Of a DNA stretch of 64,000 nucleotides, positions 52,473 through 55,174 are shown piece by piece. Made by a program: the position numbers and the translations under genes. The notes under the pieces are model-generated. The model made no database searches. It was not told the origin of the DNA and was given only the letters and a program-made list of their open reading frames with translations. Within the stretch, counting starts at the first letter, position 1, and each line of letters begins with the position of its first letter. This stretch comes from Heterodontus francisci (lineage: Eukaryota): NCBI RefSeq assembly GCF_036365525.1, contig NC_090374.1:53206532-53270531 (forward strand), read 5' to 3'.

Positions 52473-52686
52473 TCTAGTAGATTGTACATAAGCTGTTGCT
52501 GGGTAGATTATGTATACAGACCTTAAGCATTATCACAGGATGTGATGTCATGAGTCTGTACCTCGCGCTATTCAGTATTCATGTAGGTACCCTAGTAAGA
52601 AGACCCCTGTAAATAAACTCCTGTTACTTTGACCCAGAGTCTATTTTCCTCATTCAATGCTAATAGCACATTGACAAGATAGTACA
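52473..52686 (+). repeat. 5' LTR
   Basis: Direct repeat of 54962-55174 (about 28 mismatches and 1 indel in 214 bp, manual count); AATAAA at 52612; ends CA. Confidence 0.92.
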
Positions 52687-52699
52687 TGGTGGCAGCAGT
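52687..52699 (+). promoter_or_regulatory. Primer binding site, tRNA-Leu-like
   Basis: TGGTGGCAGCAGT vs TGGTGGCAGCGGT, the complement of the tRNA-Leu 3' end. Confidence 0.7.
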
Positions 52700-52753
52700 A
52701 AAACAACTTTCCCAGCATAAGAAAGCAGAAGAGATCAAAGACTTCGACGAAAA

Positions 52754-54139
52754 ATGGAAAAATCCATTTCATTACCAGAAAACTTCGAGCGAGCGGCGGG
52801 GCCCAACCAGGCCAAAGCATGGCCGAGATGCATTTGCAGATTTGACAGGTGCTGTTCCGCATCAGGTTTAACAGTACGATGGGACAAAGAACAGGTCAGT
52901 GTTTTGCTTTACGCCATGGGAGACAAGACTACCCTGGGGTCGACGATCCAGTGAGGTGATTAAAGCGTTAGGAGGTTACTTTCAGATCAAGAAAAATATA
53001 ATCATGGAGCGAGCTAAAATCAACAGGTGCACTCAGAAAATCAGTGAAAGTATCGATTTGTTTATTACTGACCTGTATAGAGTAGTGGAGGATTGCGGCT
53101 ATGAGAGGAACTGATTTGGGACAGAATAGTAGTCAGGGTTATAGATGAAGTGCTGTTAGACCAGCTTCAGTTGAAAGAAGATTTGACTTTGATAAAAACT
53201 ATTTTATTGAGCAGGCAGGCAGAAGTACGAAAGGGTAATCGACTACTAGATCGGGGGAGTCCAGCCTTGGAAATTCTGGAATTAGTCAGGTCCATTGAGA
53301 AAACAGAGAGAAATGGTGCCAGAAAGCTCAAGAGGCGGGAGAGATGCCCACAGGCAGGAACTGAATTGCAAAAGGTGTGGCCGGGAGCAGCACCAGCGGG
53401 AAAATTGCCCAGCCCGGGAAGCTGAATGTTTCTGGTGCAAGGGAAAAGGGCACTTTCAGCATGTCAGTCACAGCAGAAAACCAATGCTGCAGAGTGGAAA
53501 AAAGATAGATAAATAAAGGAGGGTCAAACAATTAATACTCCCTTCTGTTGCAAGTTGTATTATTATTAATAGTGTCTTCATTAGTGTTTCAGGGACGATC
53601 CGGAGAAAGTCTCAGGCTCAAGTAAAGGTTAACTCAGACTGTTTATTATTTACATTATACTATATAGACACTCCTCAAGCCACTTAAGCTAGCATCTGCT
53701 GTGCTGCTCCTACTTCTTCTTCTCCAGCCTATCTCATGTGACTTACAGTGGGGAGGGTCTCTCTCAATGTCTTCTCTATTAACCCTTTACCTCATTATAC
53801 TACACTTTCCTCGAAGTACAGGGGGAAAAAAACAAAGCTTGCTGGGAAGCAGAAATTCTAGTGGGAGGAAATAAAACTATTTTCAAATTAGATACAAGAG
53901 AAGCGGATTCTATCCTATCTGATCAAACACCTTGGCTGAGGAAAGAAAGGCTTAGGAAAATCAACAAAAAAAATTATACAGGCCAGGAGGGATTGAGCTG
54001 AAGGTTCTGGGAGAAATACAGACAACCTTAATACACAGAAACAACACAATCCTGGAAACCCTATATATCGTTAGGAACCAAGCCTGTTTGCTCCTTAGTA
54101 AAATAAAAAGCGTGCCTAGCCTTAAAGATGTTACACAGG
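52754..54139 (+). pseudogene. gag plus aspartic protease, frameshifted
   Basis: AWPR..RF....SGL, QVSVLLYAMG, KKNIIMERAK, twin knuckles CKRCGREQHQRENC / CFWCKGKGHF, protease FKLDT. Confidence 0.88.
53546..53804 (-). mobile_element. Solo LTR inserted antisense between gag and protease
   Basis: TG...CA ends, TSD ccttc/ctttc, AATAAA on -; begins tgtagtataatg on -. Confidence 0.8.
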
Positions 54140-54710
54140 GTGGAAGCAGATTGACCCGGAAAACTCTTCATTGGTGGTCTGAAAACTGAAACAAATGAAG
54201 AGGTACTTGAAGCAGTGTTTGGCAAATATGGAAGAATAGTAAAAGTCCTGCTGTTGACAGATCGTGAAAAAAAATAAGTCGAGGGGGGTTTGCTTTTATT
54301 ACCTTCATAAGTCCTGGAGATGCAAGATATGCAGCCAGGATATGAATGGGAAGCCTTTGGACTGAAAACCCATTAAAGTAGAAATTAGACCAGCATTTGA
54401 AAATTGTAGATGACATAGACCACCTTCACCCCCAAGAAGCCGTGGTCCTCCTTGGAGGATTCGAGGAGGAATGGGAGGTGCGCCCCAAGAAAGTGGGCAC
54501 AGTGAATGGATTCAGGAGAAAGTACAGTGCTACTTTAAGAGGAATGTACCACCACCTAAAATGCCCCTTCCTTCGAGGGCAACACGAAGTGAAGAAATGG
54601 GGGGGGAGCCAGGAAGAGGAGGTGGCTCAAGAGGACCTCCCTCACGTGAAAGGGACTGCTATGGTTCGCCTCCATCTCACGAAGAGATGATACCATCCAA
54701 AAGAATTGAT
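54140..54710 (+). pseudogene. RBMX: Processed RBMX (hnRNP G) copy: RRM plus Pro/RGG region
   Basis: [74 protein letters not shown]...PPRSRGPP...SRERDCYGSPP; no introns; stops and homopolymer frameshifts. Confidence 0.92.
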
Positions 54711-54961
54711 GAAAGTTCAAGAGGATCAGGTACCAGAGAAAGCTGATGAACCGGTGGCACAACCAACAACAGATCATCCAGACAATGATGGAAACAGAGA
54801 ACCTGAGTCATCCAATAGCTCCACTCACGCACAGCAAAGTGAGGAAGAAGAACTGAAAGACTCTACCCCAAACAAGCGAAAGAAGAGGAAGCTGTGGCAG
54901 AGTCACAAGAACCTCACAGCGTTACAGGTCTGATGAATGTAGTCAGAAACTTTGGGGGAGA

Positions 54962-55174
54962 TTTAGTATAATGTACATAAACTGTTGCTGGGTAGATTAT
55001 GTATATAGACCTTAAGCATCATCATAGGATGTGATGTCATGAGTCGGTATCTCGTGTTGTTCAGTGCTCATGTAACACCCTAGTAAGAAGGTCCCTGTAA
55101 AAAAACTCCTGTTCCTTTGGTCCAGAGTCTACTTTCCTCATGCAATACTAATAGCACATTGACATGTTGGTACA
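54962..55174 (+). repeat. 3' LTR
   Basis: Follows the PPT; direct repeat of the 5' LTR. Confidence 0.92.

Follow-up and report, generated by a model that had tools for sequence, protein, structure and literature searches.

The window analysed here is a stretch of 64,000 nucleotides of the Heterodontus francisci genome (NCBI RefSeq assembly GCF_036365525.1, contig NC_090374.1, positions 53,206,532 to 53,270,531 of the forward strand). At positions 52473-55174 it includes a decayed LTR element with two LTRs, a primer-binding site (PBS), a polypurine tract (PPT) and a 5-bp target-site duplication (TSD), in which six spliced exons of RBMX stand where reverse transcriptase (RT), RNase H and most of the integrase would be (Table 1). 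A sequence-only reading of this DNA had described an LTR retrotransposon that carries RBMX cDNA in place of pol. All parts listed in that reading, i.e., LTRs, PBS, PPT and TSD around gag, protease, RBMX and an integrase-type tail, were recovered; a nested insertion of 259 bp, an alternative exon and a 102-nt deletion in RBMX had been overlooked.

Table 1. Features of the RBMX-bearing element; positions are those of the window.
Feature	Position	Strand	Remarks
Left TSD CTTAG	52468-52472	+	In contigs of the surrounding repeat, 52467 is followed directly by 55175
5' LTR	52473-52686	+	214 bp; ends TC..CA here, TG..CA in most copies
PBS TGGTGGCAGCAG	52687-52698	+	Directly 3' of the 5' LTR
gag	52754-53545	+	Stops and frameshifts; two CCHC knuckles at ~53364-53483; from tblastn with P0106 and translation
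Nested solo-LTR-like insertion	53546-53804	-	TSD CCTTC/CTTTC; only in the window copy
End of gag linker and decayed aspartic protease	53805-54138	+	Extends to the protease-RT linker
5' switch point GGTGGAAG	54139-54146	+	In frame
Spliced RBMX fragment	54139-54710	+	Six coding exons; family-level deletions of 18 and 102 nt
3' tail of pol	54717-54933	+	Extreme integrase C-terminus; resumes after RBMX
PPT GGGGGAGA	54954-54961	+	Directly 5' of the 3' LTR
3' LTR	54962-55174	+	213 bp
Right TSD TTTAG	55175-55179	+	

The two LTRs share 185 identical columns (K2P 0.147), and the two flanking duplications match at 4 of 5 positions. The element is inserted within another repeat, a paralogue of which runs unbroken across the site elsewhere in the window; contigs of this flanking repeat skip 2707 nucleotides, of which 2702 belong to the element and five are additional. 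Piecewise matches to a sea-urchin Gag-Pol protein of 1321 aa cover Gag (residues 1-254) and protease (276-380), and the C-terminal tail was identified as the end of Pol by comparison with this protein and with the helper family described below. As the sequence-only reading had stated, RT, RNase H and the integrase core are absent: none of the three gave a match to the sea-urchin protein in the window element, and Pfam detects RRM_1 and RBM1CTR only, with zf-CCHC merely at E 0.45. Having no RT and integrase of its own, the element is a non-autonomous derivative of Ty3/Gypsy rather than an autonomous member. The PBS, putatively tRNA-Leu-like, is conserved among the family copies; a PBS complementary to leucine tRNA is a feature of the Mag clade.

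The nested insertion has its own 5-bp duplication and is absent from the other copies compared. Its minus strand opens with the same bases as the LTR of the RBMX chimera, and only weak matches to it occur among the fetched loci; it probably belongs to a related family. Elsewhere in the window, at 26488-27945 and 34069-35442, lie two long open LINE RT frames of 485 and 457 codons, which differ very little from one another and from a frame in locus L080, suggesting a recently active LINE family.

Host parent, helper family and junctions

The intron-bearing RBMX parent was located on contig C15 by a search with the RBM1CTR family. Its nine-exon model, in which all introns are GT-AG, encodes a 416-aa protein nearly identical to other shark RBMX. 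The window segment 54139-54710 matches six separate C15 exons at 77-92%, five introns having been lost; host introns are present at both sites that the sequence-only reading had given as intron positions, IVE|VLL and MNGK|SL. The best protein database matches of the cargo are RBMX proteins of sharks and rays, confirming its assignment. The fragment comprises the RRM, the Pro/RGG region, an alternative exon and part of RBM1CTR. This captured exon occurs in Mustelus isoform X1 and is missing from the Scyliorhinus protein, so that it was an alternative RBMX isoform that was captured. The exon (EWIQEIEQCYLKRN..., 105 nt, in frame, C15:3462308-3462204, in locus L036) is absent from the other five proteins compared. 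High-depth contigs from runs presumed to be RNA carry spliced host RBMX including a 5' leader that is missing from the element. At codon 26, the copies differ from the present host in 94%, and the two loci L042 and L178 encode alanine, as do 96 of 102 homologues; the capture therefore predates a change in the host. In weak searches, no annotated Gag-RBMX fusion was found among 102 protein matches, and the gag-protease-RBMX frame had no database match.

Several uninterrupted RRM frames with 43-50% identity to the RBMX RRM were also noted at C3:197.50-197.91 Mb and C3:18.59 Mb; the cluster may represent a tandem family of a different RRM gene.

RBMX-free elements with the same LTR were retrieved with a probe taken from the end of integrase. 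The existence of this RT-bearing parent family, here termed the helper, agrees with the earlier claim that pol was replaced by a host mRNA in a non-autonomous element. The helper is ~4.4 kb long and, when read with X at stops, has RVT_1, RT_RNaseH, Integrase_H2C2 and rve, the order between the LTRs being gag-PR-RT-RNase H-integrase as in Ty3/Gypsy. Among solved structures it is matched best by Ty3 RT/Gag-Pol (E 6e-33 and 5e-32), its RT-RNase H is 66-67% identical to that of sea-urchin single-ORF Gag-Pol proteins (P0106 and P0107), and the nearest matches that bear a name are proteins called 'K02A2.6-like' from marine invertebrates, sea urchins among them. In the window element, similarity to the helper breaks off at 54151 and is picked up again at 54699-54717. 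Two CCHC arrays are described as a feature of the Mag clade (PMC2577118), and two CCHC knuckles were read in translations of chimera copies. A putative Mag-like placement fits these knuckles and the nearest homologues. The helper resembles the Mag clade and P0106 and P0107 in the two CCHC arrays, the length and the RT-RNase H similarity, whereas the window element differs from them in lacking RT, RNase H and the integrase core.

Two further observations concern the helper. For a decayed helper RT-RNase H (L217:1632-2423), none of the 120 matches listed, most of them unnamed, carries the name of a shark or ray; horizontal transfer of the helper from marine invertebrates is possible. Non-autonomous forms other than the RBMX chimera exist as well: the loci L091, L219 and L230 derive from the helper by internal deletion, retain LTR-like sequence at both ends and carry no RBMX.

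The helper protease-RT linker (RVEE) and the start of host RBMX (MVEAD) both contain GGTGGAAG, an exact microhomology of 8 nt that covers RBMX codons 1-4. The chimera switches there, so that RBMX is joined at its own start codon and in frame with gag-protease, at a position corresponding to ~ residue 393 of the 1321-aa single-ORF sea-urchin homologue. No net indel is found at this junction in 84 of 105 copies. The 3' side is more varied. In the majority form, the region from ~RBMX nucleotide 690 through to the last 230 nt of pol is lost; this junction is seen in 76 of 105 copies, and none of these shows 10 or more consecutive A where RBMX ends, in line with the earlier claim that the RBMX part has neither a poly(A) nor a separate TSD. 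This secondary, short-form junction has merely 1-2 nt shared, as judged by eye.

Rarer forms retain more of RBMX or of pol. L178 is without the 18- and 102-nt deletions and is nearest to the host (p-distance 0.075). L042, the long form, has deletions of 18, 102 and 174 nt, yet keeps the C-terminal exons and ~100 nt of 3' UTR, which joins the integrase end via ~12 nt of similarity; with a last-exon probe, it is the sole locus besides the parent that matches the coding part of the last exon. L204 (C1:173.61 Mb), a recombinant, carries only RBMX nucleotides 3-148, replacing RT, and returns from nucleotide 148 to pol with 6 of 7 bases shared, followed by the RNase H end and the helper integrase. 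The lineage-level RBMX deletions (18, 102 and 174 nt) are all in frame and all outside the RRM. The rare longer forms record one capture with later in-frame deletions and recombination.

These junctions also bear on an origin by way of LINEs, in which a LINE-made RBMX processed pseudogene landed inside a helper, deletions removed pol, poly(A) and TSD, and the product was amplified by the helper. The abundance of LINE open frames in the window would make retrocopies plausible. However, both original junctions lie on sequence common to host and helper, the long form reaches ~100 nt beyond the stop codon, where it ends without poly(A), and the four candidates of the last-exon probe include, outside the parent and the long form, only one 51-bp 3' UTR match. 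The microsimilarity at both ends already largely refutes this origin, which is regarded as very improbable.

Copy number, dispersal and age

With a junction probe, all 40 of the 40 scored matches span protease and RBMX, and they lie on many contigs. A set of 65 loci was verified after duplicate fetches had been removed and 20 fetched pattern matches dropped; verification of a further 40 of 40 loci gives 105 with the same capture, and L228 raises the number to at least 106. A probe of RBMX alone yielded 111 candidates, and the true copy number of the chimera is probably somewhat above 106. Other counts were rejected. A 16-nt junction pattern had 55 matches and 0 in the control, but 20 of 33 newly fetched loci had no match to RBMX exon 2, 19 being unrelated (many in other repeats) and one cut off at the junction; the 349, 501 and 506 candidates of a first look include helpers.

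Alignments run without gaps across the exon-exon junctions in 88, 87, 74 and 85 of the 105 loci. The copies, the window itself excepted, are 83-88% alike and spread over dozens of contigs, homology between them ends at the LTR boundaries, and no two of the 27 left TSD 5-mers that could be read are alike, 18 of the 27 matching their partners at 4-5 of 5 positions. The junction common to many loci and the distinct TSDs bear out the proposal that the chimera transposed as a unit. Multiplication of one chimeric locus by segmental duplication or assembly redundancy has nothing in its favour beyond a large, repeat-rich assembly; it is inconsistent with the dispersal, divergence and LTR-bounded homology of the copies, is refuted by the distinct TSDs, and can be set aside with near certainty.

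Two LTRs are present in 46 of the 105 fetched stretches, and the LTR-LTR K2P distances (median 0.129, range 0.070-0.193, n=46) indicate that there are no young copies. No intact copy was found among the loci, the longest stop-free frame over the RRM being 401 codons and the median 98. The family is old and long dead. In a second organism, whose host RBMX is slightly different, a 270-nt contig spans the 3' junction; aligned with 54660-54932, it has 5 differing letters and 3 gaps (low depth, one study). Orthology would make the insertion several times older than the split from this organism. For absolute dating, the literature found gives only a per-generation rate, 7e-10 (PMC10587355). Contigs of family copies are of low depth and come from three runs of one sample (runs presumed to be RNA, which may contain DNA).

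Selection and exchange with the helper

Selection was assessed by comparing variants common to many copies with private variants, with CpG sites masked; this supersedes a first N/S test (RRM p 0.008), which was inflated by CpG effects and by host-lineage changes. In gag-protease, the lineage-level N/S is 29/60 versus 1331/244 for private variants (p 6e-26). Derived changes per site are unequal across the element (gag-protease ~0.10, RBMX 0.02-0.085, tail 0.04), and a helper control was therefore carried out. Of the top 40 gag matches, 21 were not known chimeras and 18 of these were fetched; in half of the fetched loci (9/18), protease is followed by RT, and these nine share 60-90% of the derived states seen in gag-protease of the chimera, against 0-10% in a first helper sample. 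As the same derived states sit in RT-bearing helpers, the purifying signal in gag-protease is the helper's and was rejected as selection on the chimera. The chimera appears to have repeatedly exchanged its 5' half with the helper. A search with the junction motif gave no exact helper match, so that changes near the junction are chimera-specific and the remainder are not. Derived states are correlated across all regions. The ladder from ancestral to derived copies was rejected as a time series because it does not correlate with LTR-LTR distance (rho -0.03, n 45); the order of helper exchange therefore has no independent date.

RBMX outside the RRM looks neutral (lineage-level N/S 10/4 versus 336/123 private). 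Within the RRM, the lineage-level N/S is 1/3 versus 334/100 private at a threshold of 0.25 (p 0.04), and 2/3 (p 0.09) and 9/7 (p 0.07) at two other thresholds. Lineage-level amino-acid changes number 2 in the RRM and 14 in the rest at a frequency of at least 0.15 (p 0.004), and 1 versus 10 (p 0.012) and 9 versus 22 (p 0.029) at other thresholds, with silent changes equal in the RRM and the remainder of the fragment. Resting on small counts and a post hoc comparison, the scarcity of amino-acid changes in the RRM is a hint and no demonstration.

The same observations can be read as use of the cargo by the element after the same origin: Gag-Pro-RBMX would be translated, the protease would free the RBMX piece where RT would be freed, as the junction position implies, and the RRM would help to package, stabilise or process element RNA. 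This would explain why the RRM was kept through ~100 insertions and the C-terminal half was not, and is consistent with the in-frame junction at the protease-RT linker, with three in-frame deletions that spare the RRM, with the RRM counts, and with locus L158, which reads gag knuckles, protease and RBMX in one frame of 293 codons. The in-frame junction and deletions and the RRM deficit favour some constraint over pure cargo. Against it, the RRM N/S reaches only p 0.07 and 0.09 at two thresholds, the N count of the low-complexity part can be raised by noise in the alignment, coding repeats may bias microhomology deletions toward in-frame ones, and the gag-protease signal belongs to the helper. 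Also, codon 86, which lies just beyond the Pfam RRM, encodes lysine in 90 of 90 aligned homologues and is changed in 94% of the copies, and no copy is intact. A useful cargo is thus considered rather unlikely, and the functional interest of the cargo implied by the sequence-only reading is only weakly supported.

Origin and relation to known captures

The account that we consider fairly probable is capture by template switching, mobilisation in trans and passive carriage of RBMX. A single-ORF Ty3/Gypsy (Mag-like) retrotransposon would have co-packaged spliced RBMX mRNA, and its RT would have switched templates twice at short shared stretches, once between the RBMX 3' UTR and the integrase end and once between the RBMX start codon and the protease-RT linker. 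The product, retaining both LTRs, PBS, PPT, gag and protease, could integrate and then be re-copied in trans by the RT and integrase of the helper; a Gag-Pro-RBMX polyprotein may have been translated. The chimera would subsequently have shed parts of RBMX by further deletions, and its LTR-gag-protease half would have been swapped repeatedly with helper RNA packaged alongside it. RBMX was most likely carried as a passenger.

In acutely transforming retroviruses, pol is replaced in frame by host coding sequence, giving helper-dependent gag-onc fusions. The shark element is alike in the in-frame replacement of pol after gag and in helper dependence, and unlike in that it has no env, is found as germline copies and shows no sign of infectivity; nor is there evidence that its cargo acted on the host.

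The mechanism of capture is known from LTR-mediated retrocopies of animals (Tan 2016; PMC5131818), in which partial spliced mRNA replaces internal ORFs while both LTRs are kept, with microsimilarity at the switch points, no poly(A) or own TSD, and secondary non-autonomous retroposition (PMC5131818). The shark chimera shows the same intron loss, ORF replacement, microsimilarity, lack of poly(A) and TSD, and retroposition as a unit. In the parts of that study considered here, more than one insertion site is recorded for just two Drosophila retrocopies, with 18 sites for nine retrocopies; its supplements may list larger cases (PMC5131818). The shark family differs in its 106 or more loci, in the in-frame joining of RBMX at the start codon of the host gene, in the preserved deletion series and in the exchange with the helper. 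Maize Bs1 and human FAM8A1, the latter captured by HERV-K, likewise have pieces of host mRNA inside an LTR element, and Bs1 copies share switch points; as described there, Bs1 differs in having one to five copies and three donor genes, and FAM8A1 is a single case (PMC5131818). The shark family, in contrast, is a vertebrate Gypsy element with ~100 copies. No description of an RBMX-carrying shark family was found in the literature covered, most subscription papers and repeat databases lying outside it. The copy number, in-frame fusion and helper tracking set this family apart as unusual within a known mechanism.

A more far-reaching proposition would be that a vertebrate Gypsy lineage made the RRM of a host splicing factor a working part of its Gag-protease, selected through ~100 insertions while tracking its helper, and that capture of host RNA or chromatin regulators is recurrent in elasmobranch Gypsy; this conjunction is less likely again than use of the cargo alone. 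The family also shows that recombination with a helper can fake a selection signal, and copies of this kind will be mis-called RBMX pseudogenes or paralogues. Where LTR-mediated capture in animals gives one or few copies in the earlier study (PMC5131818), a captured host mRNA has here become a stable non-autonomous lineage of ~100 copies in a vertebrate. Intermediates of the capture history are still present in the genome, and the copies are numerous enough to test by sequence whether a captured cargo is selected for the benefit of the element.
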